64,000 bases of DNA, from the NCBI GenBank assembly GCA_014685065.1, contig GCA_014685065.1_4092.2; one strand, 5' to 3'. Below the pieces are notes generated by a model. That model was not told where the DNA came from and did no database searches. It saw only the letters and a program-made list of their open reading frames with translations. This DNA comes from a phage. A program made the position numbers and the translations under genes. This document shows, in pieces, positions 31,070 through 47,840 of the stretch (position 1 is its first letter; each line of letters begins with the position of its first letter).

Positions 31070-32257
31070 TTATAATTGTCGGGGTGTATCTAGTACATAT
31101 CTAGTTGTACTAGGACCACCATCATCATAAGTTCCGGTTGAATATATATTTTTCATATCAGTTAGAAATGTACGATATGAACCTCTATATATTTTTATTT
31201 TATCATACATAGAATATGTTATTTGTGTAGGCATTGGACATGCAGTAAACTTACCAACAGTTGCACTAGTACCAATACCCAATGAACCAGCATAACTACT
31301 GGCATTTAAACCAGTTGCATATACACCAGTACTCGTAATTAGTATACTAGATTGTGGTGGGTATCCAGTATGAATTGAATACAAAGTACCGGGTGGTAAC
31401 GTCGTACTGTTATTTCCTAAAACTCCATTAACAGAGCTAGATGTAGTGTTATTTCCCCATGCCCCATTATTAGCTAACCCACCGACAAGGAACTGACGTG
31501 CTCCTGTATTTGGATTTTCAACTAAAGCACTTACTGCACCAGTTGAGCATCCTGTGTATTGTAACGTTTTTGTGTATGTTGTATTTGGTTGATATAAAGT
31601 ATATTCATTATATGAAGTCCATGTAGTCGCGGAACTTATACCGGATGTAACACCACCAATATATAAATTATTTTGTTTATCAAACAACAATACACAGTTA
31701 TTTGTTGACTGTATTTGTGCAATATCAACATTAGGTGTGACCGCTTTTACAAATGAACCATCGGTTATTTCATAAGTAGTTCCTGTACCATCTGCGAATT
31801 GTCTAGCACTGTTCCACCCTGTACTCCATATTGTATTATTATCCATTAACACAGTAAACCACGTAGTACCTCCATACATCTGTTTAATTGAAGTACTTGA
31901 ACTTTGTGTGTACAAATTTTGAATATATTGGTTATAACTTAAAAACGTAGTAGTACTAGTTGATAAACCAATATGACTACCATATCCACAGTAATAATAA
32001 TTTGAGTCATTGTCTTTTACTAATAAAGTTCCTTGTGTAAGCCAGCAATCGTTAACGTTTTCTCTAATTAATGTCCATGATTTTAATGCAGTGTTGTTTC
32101 CTCTACCGAATTTCCCAAAACTATTATTCCCACGTGCATATAGTTGACCATCCGTATACAGAACCACAACATCTAAATCAGTTGGGATTATTTTCTTAAT
32201 TTGAAGTGGTACTGGGGCAATATTCCCATAATTCATCATTCTTGCAAAAGGTAACAT
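31070..32257 (-). CDS. RCC1-like beta-propeller protein with MLPF leader
   Basis: MLPFARMMNYGNI; blades such as LYARGNNSFGKFGRGN. Confidence 0.7.
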   Translation of the reverse strand: MLPFARMMNYGNIAPVPLQIKKIIPTDLDVVVLYTDGQLYARGNNSFGKFGRGNNTALKSWTLIRENVNDCWLTQGTLLVKDNDSNYYYCGYGSHIGLSTSTTTFLSYNQYIQNLYTQSSSTSIKQMYGGTTWFTVLMDNNTIWSTGWNSARQFADGTGTTYEITDGSFVKAVTPNVDIAQIQSTNNCVLLFDKQNNLYIGGVTSGISSATTWTSYNEYTLYQPNTTYTKTLQYTGCSTGAVSALVENPNTGARQFLVGGLANNGAWGNNTTSSSVNGVLGNNSTTLPPGTLYSIHTGYPPQSSILITSTGVYATGLNASSYAGSLGIGTSATVGKFTACPMPTQITYSMYDKIKIYRGSYRTFLTDMKNIYSTGTYDDGGPSTTRYVLDTPRQL

Positions 32258-32328
32258 AAATTCCTCCTTTATTCATTATACTATATTTAATACAAATAAG
32301 AAAGCCAGTACAGAGTACTGGCATTAAA
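32258..32328 (-). promoter_or_regulatory. cassette intergenic module
   Basis: hairpin 32304-32322 + T-run, TATAAT, AAGGAGG. Confidence 0.65.
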
Positions 32329-33477
32329 TCATTGTATAAATGACATATCAACTTCTGTATAACTAAGAATGTTTTGTCCAGCAATTCCCCCCATTACTAC
32401 CATAGCATACCCACAATAATATAATTGCTCAGTGTCCGTAAGTATAAGTGAACCAGATGGAGTGCGTACCAAATTACACGAACTATTAAACGAAGTATAC
32501 GAAGGAGTATATGAGTACTGATTAATATTATTACCAACACCTAATTGACCAAATCCATTCGACCCAGATGCGTATAGAACTTCATCACCTTTAGCTATAT
32601 GTGATGCCATGTTACTAACACACGTATATAGAGTATAAACTCCTGAACTCAATAATGTCGGAGTTTTGTATTGTATATCGGTAGATGAAGAAGTACCACC
32701 TGTGCCAAATTCGTTCCCGTATTGTGCACCGAACTGTTTACCACAAGCGTACAAATTATTATCCGATTTAATAAAAAATGTACTCTGATAACTTACATCA
32801 AAATCTATAACATCTGAAGCAATCATCGTCACCCCAGTAATAGAAGTTTGATTACCTGTACCTAACTGATAGTAATAGTTAAAACCACAACCCCATAAAG
32901 TATTATCTTCTTTTAGGTATATGTTACCAACTGCCTTTTTAACCGAAGTTATAGTATCTACCCTTTTGAATGTGTTAAAAGAATTAATGTTTGTACCATC
33001 ACCAAATGATGATAGGTTCGAGTTATTGTTAACTCCACAACAATACAACGTACCATCGTTTGTTATCAAATTCACCTTCATATCATTAAAACTACTCATG
33101 TATTTTATATCAGAAACATTAATACCACCTGATGTTATCCACGTAGTACAGTCCGTCCACAAAGTTTTTGTATCAGTTACACCAGTGAATGCCTTCGTGT
33201 TACCAGTGATAAAAACTTTTCCAGTACCTTTCTCTTCATACAATTGACAACTACTACTGTTATCTTCCAATAGAACTCGTTTAACATTCTCTGCACAAAG
33301 AATAAATTTACTCGATGCTACACCTGTTCCAGTACCCCAATTCGTCGCAGAAGATGCATACAACTTATTAGTATAAGTATCATGAAGATACATAGAATCA
33401 CTTGAATATATTTTAAAACGCCTATCCTTACCAGGGGCAATATTCCCATAATTCATCATTCTTGCAAAAGGTAACAT
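32329..33477 (-). CDS. RCC1-like beta-propeller protein with MLPF leader
   Basis: MLPFARMMNYGNI; LYASGSNGFGQLGVGN. Confidence 0.7.
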   Translation of the reverse strand: MLPFARMMNYGNIAPGKDRRFKIYSSDSMYLHDTYTNKLYASSATNWGTGTGVASSKFILCAENVKRVLLEDNSSSCQLYEEKGTGKVFITGNTKAFTGVTDTKTLWTDCTTWITSGGINVSDIKYMSSFNDMKVNLITNDGTLYCCGVNNNSNLSSFGDGTNINSFNTFKRVDTITSVKKAVGNIYLKEDNTLWGCGFNYYYQLGTGNQTSITGVTMIASDVIDFDVSYQSTFFIKSDNNLYACGKQFGAQYGNEFGTGGTSSSTDIQYKTPTLLSSGVYTLYTCVSNMASHIAKGDEVLYASGSNGFGQLGVGNNINQYSYTPSYTSFNSSCNLVRTPSGSLILTDTEQLYYCGYAMVVMGGIAGQNILSYTEVDMSFIQ

Positions 33478-33548
33478 ATTTCCCTCCTTTATTCATTATA
33501 CTATATTTAATACAAATAAGAAAGCCAGTACAGTGTACTGGCATTATA
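33478..33548 (-). promoter_or_regulatory. cassette intergenic module
   Basis: hairpin 33524-33542 + T-run, TATAAT, AAGGAGGG. Confidence 0.65.
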
Positions 33549-34688
33549 TTATTTCCACGGTAGAAGTGAATCAGGAACCCTTGTTGGTACAGTAGTTGAA
33601 GACATTCCAGTAAGATTGGGTACACCACATGTGTATAAATTATTATATTCGTCAACTAACATCGTATAAGAATAGCTCTTACAAAAACTACTAAGATTAC
33701 TACCTTCTAATGCAGTAAGATCCATTTCAGCGAATGATGTTATATACATATCAGTTGTACCAATACCACATTGACCATTTGAATTAAGGCCACATGAAAA
33801 TAACTTATTATTATTATTAATTATACAGGATGGTCCGGTAAGGTTTGTCCCAAGCTCACCCACCAACTCCACTTCTCCTTGGAATGATAAATTTGGAATT
33901 AATGTACTCATTGGGGCTACTGACCTATTTCCTGTACCTGCTTGTCCATAGTCGTTAATAGATGCAACTTTAACATTACCATCATTAAGAAATATATAAG
34001 AAGTTTCATTTGTATTGACTGCTTTAATTGCATTACTAATCGAAGTATCTTGTGTAAATGTGAGCAAGTTTTGTGTCGTCGTTCCTGATACAAACGTTCT
34101 ACCTGCATACCAATATGAACCATCATTTAGTACTAATCCAGTACTATATATTGCACAACCAGCACTGATAACATTTTCTATTGTACTATAGGTGAATCGT
34201 GAAACGCTTGAAGTTGATCCATTCCCAAAAACACCACCAGTACCAGCACCACAGTAGAACCACTTTCCATTTTTTAAAAATACACGCATACACGAAGATA
34301 TCACAACACTATCAATATCATCTGCACTGACACCGAAATCAGTAAAGTTCTGTGTTATATCAACCCAAACGCCGTTAGTGTTTGAAGATAGTATTGGAAT
34401 AACAGTACGTCTACCAGTGTACCAAATAGTACCATCTTTCTTTATAGCAATTGTTCCTTGTACCCCACCCCAATATCGTGTAACATTTGAGTTGACAAGA
34501 GTCCATTCAGTTGAAGAGTCCAATGAACCATTACCACTTTGTCCATATGCTGAAGAACCAAACCAATATAGATTGCCATTTGTGTGTAAATAAAATTTGG
34601 CATCAGCAGAACATTGTAACCTGTTTTTAGGTAGAATCAGTTCAGGTGCGATATTCCCGTACTTAACCATTCTTGCAAAAGGTAACAT
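33549..34688 (-). CDS. RCC1-like beta-propeller protein with MLPF leader
   Basis: start set at MLPFARMVKYGNI; LFSCGLNSNGQCGIGT, YWFGSSAYGQSGNGS. Confidence 0.7.
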   Translation of the reverse strand: MLPFARMVKYGNIAPELILPKNRLQCSADAKFYLHTNGNLYWFGSSAYGQSGNGSLDSSTEWTLVNSNVTRYWGGVQGTIAIKKDGTIWYTGRRTVIPILSSNTNGVWVDITQNFTDFGVSADDIDSVVISSCMRVFLKNGKWFYCGAGTGGVFGNGSTSSVSRFTYSTIENVISAGCAIYSTGLVLNDGSYWYAGRTFVSGTTTQNLLTFTQDTSISNAIKAVNTNETSYIFLNDGNVKVASINDYGQAGTGNRSVAPMSTLIPNLSFQGEVELVGELGTNLTGPSCIINNNNKLFSCGLNSNGQCGIGTTDMYITSFAEMDLTALEGSNLSSFCKSYSYTMLVDEYNNLYTCGVPNLTGMSSTTVPTRVPDSLLPWK

Positions 34689-34758
34689 ATTCCCTCCTTT
34701 ATTTGTTATACTATATTTAATACAAATAAGAAAGCCAGTACAGTGTACTGGCATTATG
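34689..34758 (-). promoter_or_regulatory. cassette intergenic module
   Basis: hairpin 34734-34752 + T-run, TATAAC, AAGGAGGG. Confidence 0.65.
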
Positions 34759-35868
34759 TTATTTTGGTAAATCAATTTTAGTAAAGACTGCAACATCCTC
34801 GATTGCACCTGGAATGGCGTAATACGATCCAGTACTATACACATCTCCATTTTTGGTTAATATCGATGTCAAACCATCACTAAAAAGAACATCCCTAATC
34901 TCACTAACTTCAACGGGTAATTGTAAATTGGTAGCACTATATATAGCACCAGTTTGAGAATTGTTTAATCCCAAACCACGGTTCGCCCCAACACCCTTCT
35001 GATATGTACTAGTAATTACCATTTGTGTAGCAGTATTTAAGGCAGGTGAATTCGTCATAAACAATGGAGAACTATTAGGCAAAGTACTTACAGGAACTGC
35101 ACGGAATGTAGTCGTACCTGAACTAAGAAAGTTTGGAGTTTGACCACATACGAAATATGATGTACCATTATAGTAATTTAATGCATTACCACCAATGGCT
35201 GCATCGATTACACCAGAACTACGCAATCCCCAAGTGTTAATTTGTGTTTGGTTCCCCGTACCATGCTGCCCACTACTATTCCATCCAGAACTATATAGCT
35301 TATTATCTAATGTAAGATACATACTATCATTCGCATTGGTCATTACTTTACGAACGTTCGTAGCACATTGAGTTAATGTGTAAATTGATGAGGAACCAAT
35401 ACCCAAAGAACCACGATATCCATTATCTCCTGCACCATAGAGTACTGAATTAGTGCTAAGTACAAATATTAAACCATTTGTACATACAATATTAGCAATT
35501 TCACTTACTGGTATAGCATTGGTAAACCAATTAGTTCTTTCAACTAATACAGTACTGTAAGAAGTAGTTGTAGAAGATGAGAACCAGTACGTTTGACCTG
35601 ATGTCCATATCGTATTATCATTTTTAATAATAACAAGTGTACGATCACCCACGAAAAAATTAGAAACATCTGCACTTACTAATGTCCACGAAGACACCGT
35701 GTTGGTATTACCATTTCCAGATTCACCACCTTGATTTCTACCTATGTAATATAAATCATGTGAATCAGTCAATAAGAATTGGCCTTGGGTAGAAGCACCA
35801 ACTTTAATTATTTTTTTAGGACCAGGGACAATATTTCCATACCTAATCATTCTTCCAAAAGGTAACAT
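34759..35868 (-). CDS. RCC1-like beta-propeller protein with MLPF leader
   Basis: start set at MLPFGRMIRYGNI (RBS AGGAGGG); tightly coupled to upstream gene. Confidence 0.7.
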   Translation of the reverse strand: MLPFGRMIRYGNIVPGPKKIIKVGASTQGQFLLTDSHDLYYIGRNQGGESGNGNTNTVSSWTLVSADVSNFFVGDRTLVIIKNDNTIWTSGQTYWFSSSTTTSYSTVLVERTNWFTNAIPVSEIANIVCTNGLIFVLSTNSVLYGAGDNGYRGSLGIGSSSIYTLTQCATNVRKVMTNANDSMYLTLDNKLYSSGWNSSGQHGTGNQTQINTWGLRSSGVIDAAIGGNALNYYNGTSYFVCGQTPNFLSSGTTTFRAVPVSTLPNSSPLFMTNSPALNTATQMVITSTYQKGVGANRGLGLNNSQTGAIYSATNLQLPVEVSEIRDVLFSDGLTSILTKNGDVYSTGSYYAIPGAIEDVAVFTKIDLPK

Positions 35869-35876
35869 ATTCCCTC

Positions 35877-37079
35877 CTATTGTTGCCATAACTGCGTTGG
35901 CATTAATGTTAGTGTAGTAATACTATAAGTACCATTAGGTAATCTACCACCATTTCCATTCCAGCCACCACATGCATATAATTTATAATCTTTAGTAATT
36001 ATTATGGTTCTGCTCCAATCTTTAGATGCCATAAGAACATTGTCATAACCACCACTTATTGCACTAAGATTAAAAATATTCCAAGTTCTAACTAATGTAT
36101 TAGTTCCATTACCTTCTTGACCATATGAGTTAGCACCACTACTTCTAACATATGGTGCGTATTGTGCCATAGGTGCACCAATTGATGCATTTCCCATATT
36201 ACTTGGACAAATAAAAGTACTGTACTTACTTACATCAACCGTGACCGATGTGTTCCTAATTGGTGTTAGCTGATTTACCGATGTAGTCGTACCATTACCA
36301 GCTTGTCCAGTACTGTTAGCCCCGCTATAATATACAGACCCACCAGTAGTAAACCACCAAGTAACATCGTATGTAGTACTAATATGTTCTACATTACTAA
36401 TCACGAATTTGTTCAAATATACAACAGAACTACCACCACATCCACTTTCACCAAAGTTATCCTTACCACAAAACCATGCATCTTTATTTGATTTGATATA
36501 GTGCGTTCCTTGTAATGAACATGCCATATGTGTAACTTCACCCATATTAGTCATAACTGTGAGTGTAGGGATGGAATTTTTATTACCAGAGCCACATTCA
36601 CCATTGGTATTTCTTCCACACGCAATTACTCTACCATCGGTTAATAATATTCTAGTACTTTCACCTATATATACACTCTTGATCATATTAGCCATAACAC
36701 CTATTTTATTAAATGCAACAGTAACATCAGTCCATGTTGTCAAATAACCATTAACAGGTGTTGCATCTCCATAATCAGAAAATGCACCAACCGACCCAGT
36801 GTAGTATATTTTATTATCCAAATCAATCATCAATGAACCTTGAACACCAAGCCAAAAGGCTGCACAGTTCCTTGCAAGTACTGTAAATGACGAAACTGCT
36901 GCTGAATTCCCAAGACCAAATTGATAAAAGTTATTACTACCATAACCATATAAAGTATTAGTTGGGTTATGGAGATACATACAGTTTGTATAATGTTGTT
37001 GTAAAACATCTGAGAACTCTACAGGTTCTGGACCTGGTGCAATATTTGCGTACTTAACCATTCTTCCAAAAGGTAACAT
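35877..37079 (-). CDS. RCC1-like beta-propeller protein with MLPF leader, first gene of cassette
   Basis: MLPFGRMVKYANI; RBS AAGGAGGGAAA. Confidence 0.7.
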   Translation of the reverse strand: MLPFGRMVKYANIAPGPEPVEFSDVLQQHYTNCMYLHNPTNTLYGYGSNNFYQFGLGNSAAVSSFTVLARNCAAFWLGVQGSLMIDLDNKIYYTGSVGAFSDYGDATPVNGYLTTWTDVTVAFNKIGVMANMIKSVYIGESTRILLTDGRVIACGRNTNGECGSGNKNSIPTLTVMTNMGEVTHMACSLQGTHYIKSNKDAWFCGKDNFGESGCGGSSVVYLNKFVISNVEHISTTYDVTWWFTTGGSVYYSGANSTGQAGNGTTTSVNQLTPIRNTSVTVDVSKYSTFICPSNMGNASIGAPMAQYAPYVRSSGANSYGQEGNGTNTLVRTWNIFNLSAISGGYDNVLMASKDWSRTIIITKDYKLYACGGWNGNGGRLPNGTYSITTLTLMPTQLWQQ

Positions 37080-37128
37080 ATTTCCCTCCTTTATTTGTTA
37101 TATCATATTTACCACAAAAAGAAAACCC

Positions 37129-37157
37129 TTGACATCCTTTCTGGACTCATTTATAAT
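37129..37157 (+). promoter_or_regulatory. consensus sigma70 promoter TTGACA - 17 nt - TATAAT for tandem array A; divergent from cassette
   Basis: TTGACA 37129-37134, TATAAT 37152-37157; RBS AAGGAG before ATG 37181. Confidence 0.75.
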
Positions 37158-37180
37158 AGAAAAAATATAAGGAGAAATTC

Positions 37181-37426
37181 ATGAACAATGTAATAGATCA
37201 CTACCAAGCACTTAGCCAAAGTACTAAGAACTATATGAGCTACATGAACGCAGAAGATTTCGCATTCTTCCTCTCAAAATTCTGTGCAATCAATACCCTC
37301 AAAAAAAGTACTACCCCAACAAGTGCACTTATGTTGAATTGCTTTATAGAGGACATCTTTGAGGGACTACAAAACCCTGACGAAAGTAAACGATTCATTA
37401 ACCTTTTAGTACTGGCATCTATATGA
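37181..37426 (+). CDS. array A paralog (divergent, 81 aa)
   Basis: first gene after promoter; C-terminal LLVLASI resembles member at 38468. Confidence 0.55.
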   Translation: MNNVIDHYQALSQSTKNYMSYMNAEDFAFFLSKFCAINTLKKSTTPTSALMLNCFIEDIFEGLQNPDESKRFINLLVLASI

Positions 37427-37632
37427 CCCAAGAACAAATTATGCAGTACTACCTATGTGCTCTGTCAAAAGGTGAACAGAATAGCATAGAGCATCAACAA
37501 ATTATACTTGCAAATGCAAAACGTTCGGCACTTCTGCTTAACTCAGTCAGAAATAACCTCATAAGGAATTTCCTTGAAGGTAACGAGTCTATGCAGTACT
37601 ATTTCATCTTAACACTATTAATCGAGTACTAA
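37423..37632 (+). CDS. array A paralog
   Basis: ATGA overlap; ends ...FILTLLIEY. Confidence 0.55.
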   Translation: MTQEQIMQYYLCALSKGEQNSIEHQQIILANAKRSALLLNSVRNNLIRNFLEGNESMQYYFILTLLIEY

Positions 37633-37633
37633 T

Positions 37634-37843
37634 ATGAATACTGAACATAAAGAATTCTACACCAAATACCTTAGCAACGAAGAACAATTGTTTCTAAGGA
37701 GTGTATCACCTTTAAGTATAGATACACCACACGCCAGAGATTGCTTTAATAATTGTATACGTAGTACTATAGAAGCAATCGAATGTAATAACAAAAATAT
37801 TATGTACTCAGGTTTAATAGGACTAATATATTTCTATGAATAA
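37634..37843 (+). CDS. array A paralog
   Basis: MNTEHKEFYTKYL ... LIGLIYFYE. Confidence 0.55.
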   Translation: MNTEHKEFYTKYLSNEEQLFLRSVSPLSIDTPHARDCFNNCIRSTIEAIECNNKNIMYSGLIGLIYFYE

Positions 37844-38030
37844 TCATAAAGATTTCTATTGTAGTAAACTACCCAAACAAGAACAGCTATCATTCTCTTT
37901 AGCACCACCTATGAGAAAGGATAATCTGTATTATAATTACGATTTCAGGATGGTGACACGTTATGCAATAGAACATACGTTCCCTGCAACTAAGTACCGC
38001 TCTATCCTGAACCTCATCTTTAAGTTCTAA
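37836..38030 (+). CDS. array A paralog
   Basis: MNNHKDFYCSKLP ... LNLIFKF. Confidence 0.55.
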   Translation: MNNHKDFYCSKLPKQEQLSFSLAPPMRKDNLYYNYDFRMVTRYAIEHTFPATKYRSILNLIFKF

Positions 38031-38082
38031 AAGGTACACCAAGGACCGAGTACTTTAATATAGTAAGGCTAATTACATTATA

Positions 38083-38268
38083 ATGAATCATATAAGCTAC
38101 TACTACCAACAACTATCCGACAGAGACAAGTACAGTCACAACTCCCATGTGTGGTACTACAAACGCGGCAGTATAAGAGACAAACAACATTACTTCTGTA
38201 TTTCTATTAAAGAAGCACTAACAACTAAGTACACGTACCGAGCAGTACTTAAACTTATTGAAATGTAA
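38083..38268 (+). CDS. array A paralog
   Basis: MNHISYYYQQL ... VLKLIEM. Confidence 0.5.
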   Translation: MNHISYYYQQLSDRDKYSHNSHVWYYKRGSIRDKQHYFCISIKEALTTKYTYRAVLKLIEM

Positions 38269-38276
38269 GGAAGAAA

Positions 38277-38459
38277 ATGAATATAGAATTCTATTTAACT
38301 AAACTACAACACGCCGAAAGATTCAATTTCAATAAGTTCAGTATTTTCTACAATTGCGGGAACAAAAAAGATAAACACACCTTCCTATATGTCGTCACAA
38401 GAGATGCACAAAACGAAAAGTACACATACAGAGAAGTAATGAAACTAATCGCTATTTAA
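38277..38459 (+). CDS. array A paralog
   Basis: RBS AAGGAAGAAA; ends ...VMKLIAI. Confidence 0.5.
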   Translation: MNIEFYLTKLQHAERFNFNKFSIFYNCGNKKDKHTFLYVVTRDAQNEKYTYREVMKLIAI

Positions 38460-38467
38460 GGAATACT

Positions 38468-38647
38468 ATGCAACAATTCTATATAGAACGTATAACCATA
38501 AAAGACCGTTTCATGTACGACACCTTCGTTGATTACTACAACCTAGGAACAAAAAGTACTAAAAATATTAATCTCAATAGCTGCATTTATGCTGTACTAA
38601 CACAAGATAATCCCTACAGGGAAATCCTCGCCTTGGCATCTATATAA
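38468..38647 (+). CDS. array A paralog (59 aa, below track cutoff)
   Basis: hand-translated MQQFYIERITIKDRFMYD...REILALASI; RBS AAGGAA. Confidence 0.45.
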   Translation: MQQFYIERITIKDRFMYDTFVDYYNLGTKSTKNINLNSCIYAVLTQDNPYREILALASI

Positions 38648-38657
38648 AGGAAACCAA

Positions 38658-39329
38658 ATGAAACTTAATGCACACAGCAAACAATACCTTAAGCACTTTA
38701 AGTACCTCAATAGTATTCAGGCAGAATCAGTTACATCTGCATATACGTATCACCCGAATGTACTAAAGAAACGAAATAAAAAGGAAAAAACCAGTACAAA
38801 TGGAGTTAACGTATCAAAGAACCTTGAATTGTACATGAAGAAAAATAATATAGCTGTTCATTATATGAATATCTATAATACTGATTTAAAAGTATTGAGT
38901 ACTAATACGAGCATGAAGGTACTAAAGAACGCATCCTTCATCATCCATATGCAGTTGGATAATACCCCGTGCACTTTAATGCTATACTTCGGGAATACAT
39001 ACTTCTTCGGGAATTGTAACACCTCCCACGATGTCAATACAGCACAATTCCAAATGGGTGGCATATACAATATGGGTTCAAAAAAAGTACACGAGAATAT
39101 GCACTTCTGGCAAGCACAACGTACAGAAGAAACTAAATCAATTGTAGATTTCCTCAAAGAACTAGAACACAAAGAACTACAGGAAGAAGAACTATTCATG
39201 TACAGTACTGTAATCGATAATCCAGTACTCTATAAAAACGCGTACAATCTGACAAAACATGTACAGGAAATTATCAGTACTAATAAGAAAATGCATCACC
39301 TCATTACGTATATTACAAACTATGTATAA
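38658..39329 (+). CDS. hypothetical protein (223 aa) embedded in array A
   Basis: RBS AAGGAAA; unrelated to the 60-aa paralogs. Confidence 0.55.
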   Translation: MKLNAHSKQYLKHFKYLNSIQAESVTSAYTYHPNVLKKRNKKEKTSTNGVNVSKNLELYMKKNNIAVHYMNIYNTDLKVLSTNTSMKVLKNASFIIHMQLDNTPCTLMLYFGNTYFFGNCNTSHDVNTAQFQMGGIYNMGSKKVHENMHFWQAQRTEETKSIVDFLKELEHKELQEEELFMYSTVIDNPVLYKNAYNLTKHVQEIISTNKKMHHLITYITNYV

Positions 39330-39504
39330 AGAATACTATATCTCTAAACTACCCGTGCAGCAAAAATACTTTGCTGCATACAAAGTTCTTCTCATAACTC
39401 GTGCCGCTCGATCTAACTACATGAATAGCGTAAAACGTGCTATAGAAAATGATGACGCAATGAACCAGTACTATAACATTTTACTACTAATATATAAGTA
39501 CTAA
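39322..39504 (+). CDS. array A paralog
   Basis: MYKEYYISKLP ... YNILLLIYKY; overlaps previous stop. Confidence 0.55.
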   Translation: MYKEYYISKLPVQQKYFAAYKVLLITRAARSNYMNSVKRAIENDDAMNQYYNILLLIYKY

Positions 39505-39514
39505 AGAGAACAAC

Positions 39515-39697
39515 ATGCACAAAGAATACTACAGGGATAAAATACCTATGCATCTCCAGCACCATATACCAACAGAACCAATAGGAATAAAAGATCACGC
39601 AAAGATAATGTTCCAACAATGTACTAAGTACACGCTCATATACGATGATAATCCATATATGCTGTACTACGTAGTAATGCTAACATTCAGGTACTAA
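39515..39697 (+). CDS. array A paralog
   Basis: MHKEYYRDKIP ... VVMLTFRY. Confidence 0.55.
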   Translation: MHKEYYRDKIPMHLQHHIPTEPIGIKDHAKIMFQQCTKYTLIYDDNPYMLYYVVMLTFRY

Positions 39698-39698
39698 T

Positions 39699-39890
39699 AT
39701 GAATAACCACAAAGAATACTACATAGAGAAACTCCCAATGTATCTCCAACACCTTGTACCAACAGAACCATTGGGTATAGAAAAAAACTACGAAAAAGAC
39801 TACTTCATTCAGTGCACTAAATCCTCGATATATATTGAAGACTATAATCGAGTACTGTATCACATCCTTTTACTAATATATAAGTACTAA
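39699..39890 (+). CDS. array A paralog
   Basis: MNNHKEYYIEKLP ... ILLLIYKY. Confidence 0.55.
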   Translation: MNNHKEYYIEKLPMYLQHLVPTEPLGIEKNYEKDYFIQCTKSSIYIEDYNRVLYHILLLIYKY

Positions 39891-39891
39891 T

Positions 39892-40074
39892 ATGCACAAA
39901 GAATACTACACACAATTTCTCCCCAGCATTTTTGAACACTACGCCAGATATAAAGTCCCTCTGGATAACGATTTGGCAGTACTGGGATTCAATAACTGCA
40001 TAGAACGAAGTATAGAAAATAGTAGTAGTTATGACCAGCTATATAACACTATCCTACTTATATTCAGGTACTAA
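39892..40074 (+). CDS. array A paralog
   Basis: MHKEYYTQFLP ... TILLIFRY. Confidence 0.55.
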   Translation: MHKEYYTQFLPSIFEHYARYKVPLDNDLAVLGFNNCIERSIENSSSYDQLYNTILLIFRY

Positions 40075-40075
40075 C

Positions 40076-40264
40076 ATGCATAAAGAATACTACACAAAAT
40101 ATTTCCCAATGTACCTCAGAACTAATCTATTAGATAAACCTCGCGGTATCAATGCACAAAATGATAAAGTGTATTTTACTATGTGCACTAAAGCATGTAT
40201 ACTAGATTTTGACAGCTACCATCGAGTACTGTATCATACCCTGTACCTAGCTTTCGTATTCTAA
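40076..40264 (+). CDS. array A paralog
   Basis: start set to MHKEYYTKYFP (ATG 40076) ... LYLAFVF. Confidence 0.55.
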   Translation: MHKEYYTKYFPMYLRTNLLDKPRGINAQNDKVYFTMCTKACILDFDSYHRVLYHTLYLAFVF

Positions 40265-40273
40265 GAGAACAAT

Positions 40274-40459
40274 ATGCATAAAGAATTCTACTTAAGCCAT
40301 CTGGATCTAAACTCCCAAATGCTTATACCACTAATCCCAATAGATATCAAGGATAAGAAAAATACCGAACAATTCATTTACCATACACAGTGTGCGATCA
40401 CCCCAAATTACATTCCATATGAATTGTACTACATTCTCGCCCTAATATATAGGTACTAA
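40274..40459 (+). CDS. array A paralog
   Basis: MHKEFYLSHL ... ILALIYRY. Confidence 0.55.
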   Translation: MHKEFYLSHLDLNSQMLIPLIPIDIKDKKNTEQFIYHTQCAITPNYIPYELYYILALIYRY

Positions 40460-40460
40460 T

Positions 40461-40646
40461 ATGCATAGAGAATACTACACACAATTTGTTAAAGGGAACT
40501 ACAAACATGCCGTACCCAGAACCCCTTTAAATTCTCATGACCCAAGTACTATATTCTTGTTTAATGACGCAATACGTACAGTACTCAATACTAAAGATGA
40601 AGATGTGCAGTACGTATTCTTACTATTACTTATATACAGACACTAA
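40461..40646 (+). CDS. array A paralog
   Basis: MHREYYTQFV ... LLLLIYRH. Confidence 0.55.
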   Translation: MHREYYTQFVKGNYKHAVPRTPLNSHDPSTIFLFNDAIRTVLNTKDEDVQYVFLLLLIYRH

Positions 40647-40651
40647 CTAAT

Positions 40652-40834
40652 ATGAATAAAGAACATAAAGAATTCTATATAAGAAAACTAACATTCGTCC
40701 CCGTAAGAATATATAAAGAATGCGACCCAAGATTATACCTATGGCACTTCAATGAGTGCATAAAAGATTCTATATACCCTAAGAACTATAAAGAACAATT
40801 GTGCTCAGTACTAACACTAGTACTATCATATTAA
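40652..40834 (+). CDS. array A paralog
   Basis: MNKEHKEFYIRKL ... LTLVLSY. Confidence 0.55.
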   Translation: MNKEHKEFYIRKLTFVPVRIYKECDPRLYLWHFNECIKDSIYPKNYKEQLCSVLTLVLSY

Positions 40835-40849
40835 TTAATAGAGAATACT

Positions 40850-41041
40850 ATGTATAAAAACTTCTATATAAGTAAACTAAAAGAAAATGAACAAGTATGG
40901 ATTAGATCTATAATTCCACTGGCATTTAATAGATATGCATTTAACAGATGTACCGAGATTGCTATAGACCCTTATAATATTAAAGAGAATGTACAGTATA
41001 ATCAGTACTACTATATCTTAATGCTTATATATAGGAAGTAA
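40850..41041 (+). CDS. array A paralog (last member)
   Basis: MYKNFYISKL ... YILMLIYRK. Confidence 0.55.
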   Translation: MYKNFYISKLKENEQVWIRSIIPLAFNRYAFNRCTEIAIDPYNIKENVQYNQYYYILMLIYRK

Positions 41042-41149
41042 TTAAACACAAGTAGACAGGGGAAGCTCCTAGTGAACAACCTTTATGTACAGGCGAATTG
41101 TTAAAATTCAGCCTGGACAAATGCGATCACTAGGATTCTCCCCAGGCTA

Positions 41150-41250
41150 AACCCCGTAATCATAGGTAGTCATAAGTAATCATATATAAACATTTAAGTA
41201 ATCATTTATAATCACTGTAGTGATCAGTAGTGATCAGTAGTGAGTACTAG
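41150..41250. repeat. direct repeats: GTAATCA copies and tandem GTAGTGATCA x3
   Basis: taagtaatcat ... taagtaatcattta ... agtgatcagtagtgatcagtagtgagtact. Confidence 0.6.
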
Positions 41251-41379
41251 AGTACAGGAATGTTCACGTTTAATCAAGAACGTAGCAGTACTGATATGCC
41301 ACTAAGTAGGCAGAGGAAGTCTGCCGTACTTTGTAGTTTCCAAGCTCCTTTTCCATTTTGCAAATTACATCAAATGTAA

Positions 41380-41420
41380 TCAAAAGTAATCAAAAGTAAT
41401 CACGCAATGATTAGTACTGA
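41380..41420. repeat. AAAGTAATCA x3 at 10-bp spacing, plus inverted copy
   Basis: aaatgtaatcaaaagtaatcaaaagtaatcacgcaatgattag; helical-turn periodicity. Confidence 0.6.
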
Positions 41421-41446
41421 ATTATTACTTTCACCTTAATTTCAAT

Positions 41447-41485
41447 TACCCCTTTACCCTTCGGGGTAAAATTCAATTACCCCTT
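41447..41485 (+). repeat. TTCAATTACCCCT direct repeat flanking hairpin TTTACCC-ttcg-GGGTAAA
   Basis: read directly. Confidence 0.5.
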
Positions 41486-41678
41486 GAGGCTCCAGCAAAA
41501 AGTTGGTTAGTACTCCATCCTAAATCTCGATCCTAAAAATTTTGGAGTACCTATGAAATAAAAGTTGGATCTTCGAAAGTTGAAATTTACGTTGGGACAT
41601 ATAGGATTTGTGGGATATAATGAGTTTTGTAGCGATACAGATTATACGATTTCAGTACTGAATAATGAAAGAAAGCTA

Positions 41679-41706
41679 TTGACATTATGATTCAGTACTG
41701 TATAAT
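41679..41706 (+). promoter_or_regulatory. sigma70-like promoter (TTGACA-16-TGTATAAT) inside ORF-free region
   Basis: TTGACA 41679-41684, AGTACTGTATAAT to 41706; no ORF over about 20 codons downstream. Confidence 0.55.
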
Positions 41707-41711
41707 GTTCT

Positions 41712-41820
41712 ACATAGAGAGATGAGTTGCTGCGAACAATTCATTTACTCTACCTCCTGTCGTGAGACAGTACAGAAAAGATAGTTCCTCCTGTGGTGGT
41801 ACATCTTTTTGAACCTCATA
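41712..41820 (+). ncRNA. candidate small non-coding transcript (or 18-codon peptide)
   Basis: starts after promoter at 41679; runs to T-tract CATCTTTTTG about 41803-41812; only ORF is 18 codons. Confidence 0.25.
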
Positions 41821-41890
41821 TGAAAATCGTAATAACAGTACTGATATTAACAGAATGGTGTCAGTACTGATTTTAATCTAAAGCATTATG

Positions 41891-41910
41891 CCACCAGCTT
41901 GTGCTGGTGG
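41891..41910 (+). promoter_or_regulatory. strong stem-loop CCACCAGC-ttgt-GCTGGTGG
   Basis: perfect 8-9 bp GC-rich stem; no T-run. Confidence 0.4.
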
Positions 41911-42075
41911 ATTCCCTCTAACAGTATTCAGTACTACATGATAGTCTTCATCCTCCTACAGTAACAGTGAGGGCTATTGTGGCAGTACTGAATACTCCCT
42001 TTCAAAAGATAGATCTATGGTATAGTACTGACGGATTTTGGGCGTAGTAACCCTAGGTTGAATTTAGACGTAGAG

Positions 42076-42215
42076 ATGTCTAGACCTCCAGATGGCTGGA
42101 AGTAAAGATGGCTATCCCTCTAGGCGGCTGGATGGCTAGATTTCTAGATGGCTGTACTGCTAGACGTTTGGACGGCTAAACGGCTAGATGGTTACACGTC
42201 TGGATGTATAGACGG
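42076..42215. repeat. iteron-like cluster of (A/G)GATGG(C/T)T and GACGGCTAA direct repeats
   Basis: at least 8 copies in about 140 bp with 15-25 bp spacing. Confidence 0.65.
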
Positions 42216-42382
42216 CTAAATCAAAATTTTTATTTTATTTTTTCCAATAGTTCCCCTACCGCGTGGGGATGGTTTCCCCGCAGTATCTGGAGTTAGATTT
42301 TTCTGAATCTGGAATCATTATCCCCGTTTTCGCCTGGTATGTCAACCGTCTGGATGAATAATTTTAAAAAATAATCTAGTAC

Positions 42383-42435
42383 TGAATTTTGGGCGTAACT
42401 ATGCACCCGGTGGGCTTGAGTCTTTCTCGACTTGA
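42383..42435 (+). repeat. repeated element ACTGAATTTTGGGCGTAA...GCACCC...TTTCTCG, copy 1
   Basis: second copy at 42596-42650; shorter third copy near 42028. Confidence 0.55.
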
Positions 42436-42595
42436 TGAAACTATTATACAGTACTGAAAAAATAAAGCAATACCCTAAACGCAAAAAGTTTTAATTAATT
42501 TGCTTGCCATCCTGGGGCGTACTATGGTACTATATTTCAGTACTGAGAAAGTGCTATGACCTGCTAAGGTGCGGGAGTGTATCCTTTTTAAATTT

Positions 42596-42650
42596 ACTGA
42601 ATTTTGGGCGTAATTCCGCACCCCCAGGGGTATCCGCTTTCTCGCGTCTA
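42596..42650 (+). repeat. repeated element, copy 2
   Basis: actgaattttgggcgtaattccgcacccccaggggtatccgctttctcgcg. Confidence 0.55.
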
Positions 42651-42899
42651 TGTAGTAATTATACGCTTTTTCGGTGCTGAGTCAATAGCTAAAAACAAAA
42701 TAATTGAAAATAATTTAACGCGTTTAAACGGCCCGTAAAGCCCTGGTTAGCTGGTGGCGGTGCAAATGTATAGCTTAGGTGTATTAATGCGTTAGAAAGC
42801 GGCTGAGGCCGTTTTATGGTGTATAGTACTGATTCAGTACTGAAAGATAGTTCCCCTATATAGAAAGAAAACTATTTTAAAAGTATTTGTAGAAAGTAC

Positions 42900-42960
42900 T
42901 TGCAAAGTATTGGGAAAGGTGTAGAATGTTTTACATCGAGACGGGGGATACGCTCCCGAC
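42900..42960 (+). promoter_or_regulatory. PeSL-like module: promoter (TTGCAA ... TAGAAT) + leader stem-loop
   Basis: agtacttgcaaagta ... gtagaatgttttacatcgagacgggggatacgctcccg. Confidence 0.55.
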
Positions 42961-42984
42961 TCACTTTTAAAAGAGATTAAAACG

Positions 42985-43347
42985 ATGGCGACTCAAATCA
43001 ATACTATCATGCTTAACCTGGTTTCTTTCCGTGAAGAGATGAAAGATCTTCCCGCTGAGACTGTACGGATTCACATTGCAGCTTATCGGGAATTGATTGC
43101 AATGCTGCCGCTTAAGCGTGAACAGTACGCCGCTACTGCAATGCTGGACGCAATGATACATAAGATGATCCAGACTGATTTAACGATGGCTTATCAGTAC
43201 ATGGGCGAAATGTTTGCAGTGTATAGCAAGCCAGTACCAGGAATGGAAAGTACAGAAGTATTGCACGGCTTAAACTTAAAACAAGATGCATGGGATAATA
43301 TGCCTCGTTTCCTGGTATGGGCTGACAGCGGCAAGATTTACGAATAA
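42985..43347 (+). CDS. hypothetical protein
   Basis: first gene of GC-richer block; RBS AAGAG. Confidence 0.55.
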   Translation: MATQINTIMLNLVSFREEMKDLPAETVRIHIAAYRELIAMLPLKREQYAATAMLDAMIHKMIQTDLTMAYQYMGEMFAVYSKPVPGMESTEVLHGLNLKQDAWDNMPRFLVWADSGKIYE

Positions 43348-43361
43348 GTTTAATAAAGTAC

Positions 43362-43420
43362 TTGCAAACTAAGTTTAAAAGCGTATAATGTTTTACATCA
43401 GGTGGGGAATAGTTCCCCAC
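43362..43420 (+). promoter_or_regulatory. PeSL-like module: TTGCAA-16-TATAAT + stem-loop GTGGGGAATAGTTCCCCAC
   Basis: TTGCAA 43362-43367, TATAAT 43384-43389, hairpin 43402-43420. Confidence 0.65.
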
Positions 43421-43440
43421 TATATAAGAGGATTAAAAAA

Positions 43441-43680
43441 ATGGCTAAATCAAAAATGTTCTTAGGTCACAAAAACAAAACTCAATGGAATGTAAGCCTT
43501 TGGATTAATAACGACGAATCATTATACCGGTTGGCCCAGGACTTTATTGCCGCTAACACTAATCGTAATGATGCGGCCCGTCATATGATGCTATTTTTAG
43601 AACAGACTGGACAAGATAAAACACCGGACGGCTTTAAGTATAGCACTACTGCGATCCGTGCGGCGATGGTTGGAATGTAA
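43441..43680 (+). CDS. hypothetical protein
   Basis: ATG 43441 after GAGGA; track start upstream lies in the hairpin. Confidence 0.55.
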   Translation: MAKSKMFLGHKNKTQWNVSLWINNDESLYRLAQDFIAANTNRNDAARHMMLFLEQTGQDKTPDGFKYSTTAIRAAMVGM

Positions 43681-43762
43681 GAGAATAGATTAAAAGTACT
43701 ATTGCACGGTGATAGTACTTTATAATAGATTTCTTTTATACAACAACGATAGGGGTAACAGC

Positions 43763-44029
43763 ATGAATATTATATACTTTGCAACGCGTGAACTTGCTCG
43801 GATTGCCGCACGCCAGGACGGGGCGACGTTTAAAGATATGGGCGTACAATCTGAACGTGGTAAACGTTGGGCCGTAGTAAAGCAAAGTACAGCCCGATCA
43901 ATTCAGTACTGGCTATCTGCTTTAAAGCGTCCTGATAGTGTATCGCGTCGCGTGGTAGAAATAAAGCACGACCGCAAGGGCAACCGCGTTACTGTGTACA
44001 GTACTAAAAAGATTGCAGTACTTGAATAA
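43763..44029 (+). CDS. hypothetical protein, paralog of 55734 gene
   Basis: FATRELARIAARQDGATFKDMG ... HDRKGNRVTVYS shared with 55734..56129. Confidence 0.55.
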   Translation: MNIIYFATRELARIAARQDGATFKDMGVQSERGKRWAVVKQSTARSIQYWLSALKRPDSVSRRVVEIKHDRKGNRVTVYSTKKIAVLE

Positions 44030-44151
44030 AAGTACTTGACAGTTATCCGGCTTAGTGAGATAATACTTACAAGCCGGACACAAGGCGATAGCCCATAGGG
44101 TGCGGGAGTGTATCTATAGGAAAGTACTAAAAACTATTTTCAAAAAAGTAC

Positions 44152-44179
44152 TTGCAAACTATGTTTAAAGGCGTATAAT
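44152..44179 (+). promoter_or_regulatory. promoter TTGCAA ... TATAAT, upstream of structured element
   Basis: agtacttgcaaactatgtttaaaggcgtataatg. Confidence 0.55.
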
Positions 44180-44180
44180 G

Positions 44181-44262
44181 TTTTACATCAGGACGGGGAA
44201 TGAAATAAGTAACTCCCTGTTAAGTAGTCCAGGAGTAAGACTTACGAAAAACTCCCCTGATA
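44181..44262 (+). ncRNA. structured RNA element, copy A (nested hairpins) between two promoters
   Basis: about 93 percent identical to 54513-54592; stem ACGGGGA/TCCCTGT has G-U where copy B has G-C. Confidence 0.35.
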
Positions 44263-44269
44263 AAATAGT

Positions 44270-44297
44270 TTGACAAAGATTTATAAAAGCGTATAAT
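44270..44297 (+). promoter_or_regulatory. promoter TTGACA-16-TATAAT
   Basis: tttgacaaagatttataaaagcgtataat. Confidence 0.55.
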
Positions 44298-44329
44298 ACT
44301 TACATCAACTAATGAATGAGGGTTACAAA

Positions 44330-44941
44330 ATGAAAACTATCACTACTACTACTTTTGTTATGGCTTTTTCTGAACTGAACGCAGAACAACAAACGGCGGC
44401 TATCGAACTGGTTCGGGATCGGGAACGTGCAAGTGAGGATAATTTCTTTGCTGAGTCAGTACTGGAATACTATAAAGAAACAGTACTGCCAGAATACGGC
44501 ATAGATGAAGCTGAATTGCAATACAGTGGTTTTTGGTCGCAAGGTGACGGTGCATCAATCAGTACTGACCACGTTGACGCTGAGAAGTTTTTACGCAAGG
44601 TTAAGGCGTTAACTAAGTATCGCACTATCCGTCACCTGTTGAACGAAGATGATTTAGAAATGAGTGTAGAACGTTCCCAATCGCGTTATGCACACGAAAA
44701 CACGGTAGGCGGTTGCGTTGATACTCGCTACACTGATTTAACTGTAAAACAGGCTGCATTAGCTGAGGATCTGGAAAACTTACTGACTGATACTATCCGA
44801 GAATTATCTTGTAAGCTGTACCGTGATTTAGAAAATGCTTATGAAGACCAGTTTACTACTGAAAACATTGTAGCACTGATTGAGGGTAACGAATATCAAT
44901 TTAATGTTATCGATGGTGTAGTAGAATCTATCGCATATTAA
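44330..44941 (+). CDS. hypothetical protein
   Basis: ATG 44330 after GAGGG. Confidence 0.55.
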   Translation: MKTITTTTFVMAFSELNAEQQTAAIELVRDRERASEDNFFAESVLEYYKETVLPEYGIDEAELQYSGFWSQGDGASISTDHVDAEKFLRKVKALTKYRTIRHLLNEDDLEMSVERSQSRYAHENTVGGCVDTRYTDLTVKQAALAEDLENLLTDTIRELSCKLYRDLENAYEDQFTTENIVALIEGNEYQFNVIDGVVESIAY

Positions 44942-44999
44942 TTCAGTACTGAATCACTGGCGGGGAATGGTTCCCGCCTATATCCCAGGAGTAAGAGAA

Positions 45000-45236
45000 A
45001 TGATCGAACAAATCAAAACTACAACGCCAAACGTAACGGGTACAGTATCACACTTCATTGGTGACGATTCGCGGGGCGTTCCTTATTGTGCAGTACATGT
45101 AAACCAAAATGGCGACTACTGGCTAACGGTTTACGGTTCTTATTCTTTCGGGCGTAGTGCACACCAAAAGATCCTGGATAAAGTACAGCCAACGGGTAAA
45201 AATATCACCGCTGAGATGTTTTATAAAAAGCACTAA
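45000..45236 (+). CDS. hypothetical protein
   Basis: ATG 45000 after AGGAG; preceded by hairpin GGCGGGGAATGGTTCCCGCC. Confidence 0.5.
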   Translation: MIEQIKTTTPNVTGTVSHFIGDDSRGVPYCAVHVNQNGDYWLTVYGSYSFGRSAHQKILDKVQPTGKNITAEMFYKKH

Positions 45237-45243
45237 AAAGTAC

Positions 45244-45302
45244 TTGCAAAGTAATTAGATTAACGTATAATACTTTATATCGAGAGCGGGAATAGTTCCC
45301 GC
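45244..45302 (+). promoter_or_regulatory. PeSL-like module
   Basis: TTGCAA 45244-45249, TATAAT 45266-45271, hairpin GCGGGAATAGTTCCCGC 45286-45302. Confidence 0.65.
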
Positions 45303-45321
45303 CTTTAATGAGGATTATCTA

Positions 45322-45606
45322 ATGAGCAAAGTAATTAATAGTAAAGTACTAACTAAAACTTTATCTATAACTGAGTGCACCGATGGTTTTTGGCTGTACG
45401 ATGAAACGCGTGGCATGAATTTAGCTATGCAGGAGAAAACTGCTGATGCGGCATATCTTAAAGCACTGGAATACTACCAGAAGCGTTTAAAGGAAGTAGA
45501 AAACGATTATAATAACCTGAAAGCGAAAGTAGATCATTTTGTCGGTCAATTCGTTGACGATGACGAGGACGGGCACTACTGCGACCGTTGCGGATCTTAC
45601 AATTGA
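45322..45606 (+). CDS. hypothetical protein
   Basis: RBS GAGGA; 94 aa. Confidence 0.55.
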   Translation: MSKVINSKVLTKTLSITECTDGFWLYDETRGMNLAMQEKTADAAYLKALEYYQKRLKEVENDYNNLKAKVDHFVGQFVDDDEDGHYCDRCGSYN

Positions 45607-45623
45607 GTACTGAGGATTATCTA

Positions 45624-45827
45624 ATGAGTGATTTAATTGAACGTATCAAAGAGCTTGAAGAAAAAGAATTGCAGTTGATCGGGTTACGGAATAAAGTATT
45701 CCATGATTTAGGTGGCTTCATTAATGCCTGGGATAGTGGCGATCCTGATGCGTTACCTGCTAACCGCCAGGCGATGATCAATGATGTGCGTGGTGTCTTT
45801 GATTATGTTTTAAAGCAATTAAATTAA
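45624..45827 (+). CDS. hypothetical protein
   Basis: ATG 45624 after GAGGA; leader duplicated from upstream gene. Confidence 0.5.
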   Translation: MSDLIERIKELEEKELQLIGLRNKVFHDLGGFINAWDSGDPDALPANRQAMINDVRGVFDYVLKQLN

Positions 45828-45834
45828 AAAAGTA

Positions 45835-45895
45835 CTTGCAATTAGTTTTTAGTACTGTATAATAGTTTACATCAAGGGGGGAAATGGTTCTCCCC
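45835..45895 (+). promoter_or_regulatory. PeSL-like module
   Basis: TTGCAA 45835-45840, TGTATAAT, hairpin GGGGGGAAATGGTTCTCCCC. Confidence 0.65.
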
Positions 45896-45914
45896 ACTAA
45901 TAAGGAGTTTTACA

Positions 45915-46136: not shown

Positions 46137-46304
46137 TACAGAGGGGATCAATTGATCCCCTTTATATTTTTTGTACTGAATCATTTAATAGACGGATCTA
46201 TGCACCCTGTGGGTTAGTGACTATCTCGTCTTTATGTAAGTATTATGCCAGTACTGGATGCAGTTGTCAAGACTTTTTTTTCAAATACTTTTATATCAAA
46301 GTAC

Positions 46305-47832: not shown

Positions 47833-47840
47833 AAAATAGT

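Follow-up and report, generated by a model that had tools for sequence, protein, structure and literature searches.

What could a jumbo phage gain from a long row of small, strongly diverged genes that stand head to tail behind a host-type consensus promoter? We examined this question for an array at positions 37181–41041 of a 64,000-nucleotide (nt) stretch of phage DNA (contig GCA_014685065.1_4092.2), which is called the window below. Sequence matching identified the source of the window as Asteriusvirus, that is, a 121Q/PBECO4-like, Rak2-like jumbo coliphage. The array comprises 17 plus-strand genes (g01–g17 in order), 16 of which encode proteins of 59–81 amino acids (aa) and one a protein of 223 aa. 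The original prediction described 16 paralogues under one promoter, serving either dosage amplification or diversification against a variable target. Our analysis favours diversification. The array may be an early, translationally coupled operon, transcribed by the host RNA polymerase and encoding a repertoire of small binders aimed at variable host targets. From the sequence evidence, we give this reading a probability of roughly one half.

All-versus-all BLASTP placed g03, g04 and g09–g17 in one group (the core) and g05–g07 in another (sub-family S). The profile phrog_11711, annotated as unknown function, matched all 11 core genes end to end over profile positions 1–62 (E from 1.6 × 10−6 to 5 × 10−28). 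No PHROG match at E ≤ 0.01 was obtained for g01, g02, g05, g06 or g07. Profile–profile comparisons (hhalign) were made with alignments enriched with orthologues from ten related phages. Sub-family S aligned with the core end to end over 54 columns (probability 88%, E = 3 × 10−6); an earlier comparison with 3 S sequences had given a probability of 22%, and the relationship became convincing once 24 S sequences were used. The gene g02 (class b) aligned with the core over 59 columns (87%, E = 4 × 10−6). For g01 (class a) the probabilities were 1.5% against the core and 12% against b. This gene resembles the family in size, position and C-terminus, and is 83% identical to its JNE01 orthologue and 27% identical to gp249 of 121Q. 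The proposed 16 paralogues thus become 11 clear members (g03, g04, g09–g17) and 4 probable ones (g02, g05–g07), with g01 unproven. The motifs MHKEYY..., C(T/I)xxxI and ...LLIY(R/K)Y are real in the 11 core genes. The 223-aa product of g08 is unrelated to the small proteins, as had been proposed; it belongs to its own family, phrog_29152, which is kept in synteny.

The same layout, a b C C (b) S{2–6} X C{6–11}, recurs in ten relatives, where C is a core gene, X is the 223-aa gene and an extra b gene is sometimes present. Each relative carries 10–13 core and 2–6 S genes, and in all relatives examined g08 separates the S block from the second core block. The same gene order is found in two metagenomic contigs, which also share the adjacent propeller genes and the gap downstream. 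When all core and S genes of 11 phages were clustered at 65% identity, 37 orthogroups resulted, none of them with more than one copy in a phage. Within a phage, no pair of paralogues was more than 59% identical; the core paralogues of the window are 18–50% identical (median 31%). Because orthologues are 77–100% identical and paralogues much more distant, the duplications are older than the split between the compared phages. JNE01 had no orthogroup in common with the other phages. By these comparisons, the copies were shown to descend from ancient tandem duplication, each having since been kept as a distinct single-copy lineage. The comparisons likewise showed a pool of at least 37 lineages, of which related phages carry different subsets.

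Exchange between phages was visible in the same alignments. Identity to SP27 jumps from gene to gene (g06, 62%; g07, 78%; g11–g17, 98–100%). A mosaic breakpoint was located within 37620–37660, at the g02/g03 boundary. The sequence on its left is JNE01/Turkey5-like from at least 36000 onwards, and that on its right is 99–100% 121Q-like. The segment 37181–37632 (g01 and g02) is not of the 121Q type and is matched by JNE01 and Turkey5 at 92–95%; window positions 37590–41100 are 99.3% identical to 121Q 131743–135253 (gp250–265). Whole-gene exchange at gene boundaries is shown by the alignments for this one breakpoint. On the same alignment evidence, the variation of the array is presence, absence and replacement of whole genes.

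The family appears to be confined to the Asteriusvirus lineage, judging from the searches. The core profile found 68 clusters among 5.8 billion proteins. In an exhaustive HMMER search of the core profile against 1.84 billion representatives, 30 of the 31 matches listed were true. A 531-aa protein (P0086) with seven matched stretches was considered as a fused array and rejected as an unrelated repetitive protein. Using tBLASTN, we found the family in 36 phage records, all of Escherichia/Salmonella jumbo phages. A megablast search of 37100–41100 against the phage collection also returned 36 records, all Escherichia/Salmonella jumbo phages of about 310–386 kilobases (kb) in Asteriusvirus, including 121Q, PBECO4, G17, phAPEC6 and relatives.

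Public databases already list the array genes as hypothetical proteins and place them in a PHROG. The counterpart of the full array in 121Q is gp249–gp265, every one of which is annotated as "hypothetical protein". In that genome, a minus-strand array of RCC1-like "DNA condensation" genes borders it to the left, and about 2 kb with no annotated genes follow to the right. The array itself was not described in the papers we searched on 121Q, PBECO4, Asteriusvirus, early small-protein arrays and the AGTACTG motif. In SP27, Sharanji, PBECO4, slurp01 and other public records, some family members have no annotated feature, which indicates under-annotation in the genus.

We modelled the core protein g11 with AlphaFold2 from a 67-sequence family alignment. 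The mean predicted local distance difference test score (pLDDT) was 91.8, with helices at residues 3–9, 14–17, 30–45 and 49–62. The core protein is therefore predicted with high confidence to be a small soluble domain of four helices. A Foldseek search of this model against BFVD returned family members only and no other structural relative. The conserved columns are Y8, L12, P24, L25, F36, C39, T/I40, I/L44, Y/L53, L57, L59, I60 and Y/F61. Their spacing within helices 3 and 4 is i, i+3/4 and i+7, as for a buried face, and the other columns are highly variable. The array products contain 10.9% tyrosine, against 5.3% in the other long open reading frames (ORFs) of the window; glycine, tryptophan and valine are scarce. 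Their isoelectric points (pI) range from 5.1 to 9.6 and their net charges from −3 to +5. The pattern expected for diversification was thus borne out, with a conserved hydrophobic core, variable remaining positions and a pI of 5.1–9.6. Scans of representatives against Pfam, NCBIfam and PADLOC gave sub-threshold noise only, namely MjAgo_N-like (E = 0.028), SseB (E = 0.0013, far below its cut-off) and PDC-S19 (E = 0.013).

Selection was estimated from the ratio of non-synonymous to synonymous change (dN/dS or omega, Nei–Gojobori). The pooled values for the window genes against their orthologues were 0.50 (121Q), 0.42 (G17), 0.45 (SP27), 0.39 (ECO103) and 0.39 (CMSTMSU); the value against JNE01, for g01 and g02 only, was 0.36. 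In the ECO103 comparison there were 196.7 non-synonymous and 108.3 synonymous differences (N = 2212, S = 524 sites). Computed from these site counts, the non-synonymous changes lie about 7 standard deviations below the neutral expectation. The flanking genes had dN/dS of 0.12–0.35, which indicates that the array is constrained, somewhat less than its neighbours. The ORFs are thus true protein-coding paralogues with conserved codon structure, as the orthologue dN/dS of 0.39–0.50 and the pLDDT of 91.8 attest. By column class, the orthologue omega was 0.34 at conserved, 0.48 at intermediate and 0.37 at paralogue-variable columns. Because omega is alike in all classes, no ongoing arms race by point mutation is seen, and selection also preserves the surfaces by which the paralogues differ.

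The head promoter lies on the plus strand at 37129–37157, 23 nt upstream of the g01 start codon and back to back with the upstream region of a divergent RCC1-like gene. It is an exact match to the textbook form that had been claimed for it (TTGACA-17 nt-TATAAT, 12 of 12 positions). There are 17 perfect TTGACA-N16–18-TATAAT sites in the window, all on the plus strand, against 0.16 expected from dinucleotide-preserving shuffles. The position of the head promoter is kept in 8 relatives, namely those with an identifiable first array gene, at 10–11 of 12 matches. The 121Q type has TTGACA-17-TACTAT with an AGTACTG box in the spacer, and JNE01 has TTGACA-17-TACAAT; among these phages, the perfect −10 hexamer is found only in the window, where the AGTACTG box is absent. 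The head of the array thus carries the consensus −35 and −10 elements expected of a sigma-70-dependent early operon, and they are kept in these relatives. In CBB, a related Rak2-like phage, RpoD-like promoters cluster ahead of short hypothetical genes that are considered early (PMC5259590). PA5oct is reported to depend on host RNA polymerase (PMC7318152). Because of the conserved head promoter and the analogy with Rak2-like phages (PMC5259590, PMC7318152), early expression of the array can reasonably be inferred.

Transcription from one promoter, as first proposed, is plausible in that our scan found no intrinsic terminator inside the array, but a promoter-like site lies within g13 (40209–40237, plus strand; TTGACA-N10-AGTACTG-TATCAT, 11 of 12). 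Its −35 element is not kept, reading ATGACA in JP4/SD15 and TTGATA in ECO103, and it is also altered in CMSTMSU. From its sequence, we regard this site as a weak candidate that is not obviously constrained. Directly 3' of the g17 stop there is an imperfect long hairpin (41053–41149, plus strand), an inverted repeat without a U-run. The fold of 41030–41350 gave z = −4.6 against shuffles, and the hairpin may give the transcript a structured 3' end.

The genes are closely packed. The array opens with g01 (37181–37426, 81 aa), which has a strong Shine–Dalgarno sequence, AAGGAG, and g02 (37423–37632, 69 aa), whose start overlaps the g01 stop (ATGA). The first core block follows, with g03 (37634–37843, 69 aa; phrog_11711 E = 7 × 10−14), which has the mosaic breakpoint at its 5' boundary, and g04 (37836–38030, 64 aa; E = 1.4 × 10−25). 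The S block consists of g05 (38083–38268, 61 aa), g06 (38277–38459, 60 aa) and g07 (38468–38647, 59 aa), and is followed by g08 (38658–39329, 223 aa; phrog_29152, annotated as unknown function). The second core block begins with g09 (39322–39504, 60 aa; E = 3 × 10−12), which overlaps the g08 stop and whose start codon was picked from the family alignment and the 121Q annotation. It continues with g10 (39515–39697, 60 aa; E = 8 × 10−26), g11 (39699–39890, 63 aa; E = 1.2 × 10−27; the member modelled), g12 (39892–40074, 60 aa; E = 2 × 10−24), g13 (40076–40264, 62 aa; E = 5 × 10−28), g14 (40274–40459, 61 aa; E = 8 × 10−12), g15 (40461–40646, 61 aa; E = 6.5 × 10−9) and g16 (40652–40834, 60 aa; E = 1.6 × 10−6), and ends with g17 (40850–41041, 63 aa; E = 7 × 10−24).

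From g01 to g17 the stop-to-start spacings are −4, +1, −8, +52, +8, +8, +10, −8, +10, +1, +1, +1, +9, +1, +5 and +15 nt. Stops and starts are therefore adjacent or overlapping, as had been noticed, at −8 to +15 nt except for the 52-nt gap between g04 and g05. Five junctions have a 1-nt spacer of the form TAAnATG (TAAtATG at four, TAAcATG at g12/g13). A Shine–Dalgarno sequence is clear at g01, g06, g07 and g08; most of the closely abutted genes are without one, which fits translational coupling. The gap at 38031–38082 is the sole sizeable intergenic gap in the array, and G17, slurp01 and phAPEC6 have an extra b-type gene there. It looks like the scar of a cassette that was lost or never acquired.

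These results may be combined as follows. Host sigma-70 RNA polymerase would start at 37129–37157 soon after DNA entry and read through about 3.9 kb of packed genes. Translation of g01 and some other genes would use their own Shine–Dalgarno sequences, and genes with TAAnATG or overlapping stops and starts would be coupled by termination and reinitiation. The predicted products are about 15 versions of one small, soluble, tyrosine-rich four-helix protein, as shown by the homology, the confidence of the fold and the purifying selection. Their hydrophobic core is conserved, whereas they differ widely in net charge and in the residues outside it. Binding to different, variable partners is suggested because the core is conserved, the remaining residues and charges diverge, lineages are retained and there is presence/absence polymorphism with cassette exchange. 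Early-type expression would make host proteins the more likely partners. Each member could then be directed early in infection at a different strain-variable host protein, such as a takeover target, a defence effector or a toxin, and the set carried by a phage would affect which strains it can exploit.

Several points weigh against this reading. The relationship of g01 to the family is below significance, and the array exceeds its flanks in omega by a modest margin. Among the orthologue differences, the paralogue-variable columns gave no sign of positive selection, with omega at 0.34–0.48 in all classes. The candidate promoter inside g13 and the absence of a canonical terminator after g17 would also allow other transcript structures. 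A literature search found no expression data or transcriptome for Asteriusvirus, and the early timing is taken from the promoter match and from analogy.

A further proposal is that the array is an exchangeable repertoire of miniature binders on a four-helix scaffold, each lineage neutralising a different strain-variable host defence or toxin protein. Recombination at the conserved ends of the genes would reshuffle the repertoire when jumbo phages co-infect a cell, and the array would be, among bacterial viruses, the counterpart of the immune-evasion families of large eukaryotic DNA viruses. We regard this as possible, on the unlikely side. No anti-defence family or Aca-type helix-turn-helix regulator was found in the Pfam and NCBIfam scans, which included no dedicated anti-defence library.

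The proteins could instead serve the phage itself, as adaptors, chaperones or regulators for the RCC1-like propeller proteins encoded next door, or as binders of AGTACTG sites, their diversity matching that of phage partners. The array always adjoins, divergently, a minus-strand array of about 10 paralogous RCC1-like (beta-propeller) genes (25493–37079 in the window), which also vary between phages; the copy adjoining the small genes differs between relatives. This explanation would also agree with the steady purifying selection on orthologues and the missing signal of positive selection, and with a genome that has a striking excess of one palindrome lacking an assigned binding factor. However, neither the Pfam scan nor the fold search detected a helix-turn-helix or other DNA-binding fold in the array proteins, and net charges from −3 to +5 argue against a common nucleic-acid ligand. 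Moreover, the RCC1-like genes are individually equipped with a promoter-like sequence, aaatatagTATAATga, and a hairpin terminator; these promoter-like sequences differ from the promoter of the array and co-regulation is not evident. We therefore consider a phage-internal role unlikely.

Still less probable is a poly-immunity or antitoxin locus, in which the copies would neutralise abortive-infection or polymorphic toxins of the host, or a toxic product of g08. Tandem, diverged paralogues of small immunity proteins are known in bacteria and some DNA viruses (PMC3113570, PMC3482391), the array products are small and all-helical, and a conserved larger gene is embedded among them. However, no immunity or antitoxin family of Pfam was matched, and neither g08 nor its neighbours had a recognisable toxin domain in the Pfam and NCBIfam scans. 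The AlphaFold2 model of g08 was uninformative (pLDDT 40), and no toxin cassette is evident nearby. Of the marks of a poly-immunity locus, neither an adjacent polymorphic toxin nor an immunity family or fold was found, and we consider such a role unlikely.

Dosage amplification, the other purpose considered originally and also known as a gene accordion, would mean that one gene was recently multiplied in tandem so that more of its product is made; poxvirus K3L under host pressure is an example. The head-to-tail arrangement and the different copy numbers among related phages (10–13 core and 2–6 S genes) could be read in this way. However, recent copies should not be as distant as the paralogues of the window, nor should the duplications be older than the divergence of the compared phages. 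Since every one of the 37 orthogroups occurs at most once per phage and paralogue identity does not exceed 59% in the 11 phages, dosage amplification was rejected, and we consider it very improbable.

The conserved hydrophobic C-terminus, (I/L)LL(I/T)(Y/F)(R/K)Y, would suggest small proteins held in the membrane by a tail anchor, such as superinfection exclusion proteins, holin/antiholin-like proteins or envelope modifiers. The hydrophobic run that had been noted in the tail is present, but it is just about 8–10 residues long and forms the last helix (residues 49–62) of the compact, soluble fold in the high-confidence model, not a membrane anchor. The highest 19-residue Kyte–Doolittle mean among the products is at most 1.02, under the usual threshold of 1.6. 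With this hydropathy and a packed C-terminal helix, a membrane-spanning segment was rejected, and membrane anchoring is hardly credible. Chance ORFs, or a DNA-level repeat that carries GTAC/AGTACT sites and has no protein function, might account for the 5.3-fold enrichment of GTAC in the array (2.8-fold window-wide, in all three codon frames) and for the array ORFs left unannotated in several public records, but have scarcely any chance against a dN/dS well below 1, a family-wide alignment that gives a pLDDT 92 model, reading frames, lengths and start/stop packing kept in all relatives, and independent PHROG profile matches, and were rejected on this sequence evidence.

Other features of the window were also recorded. 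GTAC is its most over-represented 4-mer, and the palindrome AGTACT occurs 264 times in the 64 kb, about 12 times the expectation from base composition (for example at 41651–41660, 41691–41706, 41836–41869 and 42821–42841). In 11 of the 17 perfect sigma-70 promoters, AGTACTG stands immediately next to the −10 hexamer. Between the RCC1-like genes, it makes up hairpins that resemble terminators (CCAGTAC-N3-GTACTGG followed by a T-run). Our literature search found no paper mentioning this motif. AGTACT/AGTACTG may be the site for a phage DNA-binding factor or for DNA modification. Another sequence, AAGTACTTGC, has 14 copies in 42894–60480, on the plus strand only, and is usually followed about 16 nt later by a −10-like hexamer (for example TTGCAA-16-TAGAAT at 42900–42927). 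It looks like a second promoter class, which is absent from the array.

Downstream of the array, 41041–42985 is almost 2 kb without an ORF of at least 100 aa and has no annotated gene in 121Q. It contains iteron-like repeats, namely GTAATCA about 10 times with 10-nt spacing (41149–41412), GATGGCT about 8 times (42075–42194) and ATTTTGGGCGTA 3 times. A perfect promoter at 41679–41706 is followed about 200 nt on by a GC-rich hairpin at 41889–41909. This region may serve as an origin or regulatory hub or may encode small RNAs; scans of the window for transfer RNAs and against Rfam gave no matches. Between 36001 and 42000, the plus-strand array has a negative GC skew (−0.17 to −0.19) and a strong positive AT skew (+0.23), and the other plus-strand coding regions of the window, unlike the array, have a positive GC skew. 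The skew of the array is probably a consequence of its composition, which is rich in Tyr, His, Asn and Gln and poor in Gly and Val. Finally, a second, unrelated tandem array at 61467–63872, which runs off the end of the window, has at least 10 genes of about 70 aa with overlapping stops and starts and a conserved G-T-N-Y-Q.

If the array proteins bind distinct host proteins, they would amount to some 40 small natural inhibitors, ready for use, on one 60-residue scaffold. The locus would then be a candidate host-range determinant in jumbo coliphages considered for therapy. The array is a clean example of the growth of jumbo phage genomes by ancient tandem duplication and long-term retention of copies, not by recent amplification.

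Several known systems can be compared with this array. Diverged tandem multigene families occur in large eukaryotic DNA viruses, for example MGF110/360/505 of African swine fever virus and the ankyrin and Bcl-2-like families of poxviruses. Some of these families have an established link to host range. Hosts, folds and sizes differ from those of our array, there is no homology, and a link to host range is conjecture here. As in these families, the array holds diverged tandem paralogues that are kept as lineages, and isolates differ by gain and loss of whole members. In the eukaryotic viruses, such gains and losses fall in regions associated with host range and immune evasion.

Among bacteriophages, the host-takeover module of SPO1 has about 24–26 small genes, and the early genes of T4 are comparable. 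Host shut-off or toxicity has been demonstrated for some SPO1 and T4 products. In CBB, the region CBB_390–546 contains short ORFs with RpoD-like promoters (PMC5259590). The array shares with these early clusters its short packed genes, strong host-sigma promoters and few database matches. However, each of those clusters mixes unrelated genes; in the array, a single predicted fold recurs about 15 times.

Zhang, Iyer and Aravind have described poly-immunity loci with tandem, small, diverged paralogues, which the array resembles (PMC3113570, PMC3482391). In such loci, the diversity of paralogues mirrors the diversity of protein targets (PMC3113570, PMC3482391). In contrast, the array has no adjacent toxin gene and no immunity family or fold, and belongs to a virulent phage with an early-type promoter.

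The array can also be compared with other paralogue arrays of jumbo phages. Hua et al. (2017) reported tandem arrays of more than 30 similar genes in phage G and 121Q, and described tandem duplication as a route of genome growth (PMC5646251). The second array of the window is probably the one of more than 30 genes reported for 121Q (PMC5646251), an identification made in the present analysis and not in that paper. Wagemans et al. (2020) found eleven RCC1-like genes in phAPEC6, which echoes the theme of tandem duplication (PMC7247149). The phrog_11711 family and its S and b relatives are not described in these two papers (PMC5646251, PMC7247149) or in the other literature searched. Like the arrays they report, ours is head to tail, derives from tandem duplication and expands the genome, and 121Q is the same genome in both cases (PMC5646251, PMC7247149). 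Our array adds one more case to the tandem paralogue arrays known from jumbo phages, and differs from the others in that its members are about 60 aa long, are far more diverged from each other and stand behind a host-type consensus promoter.

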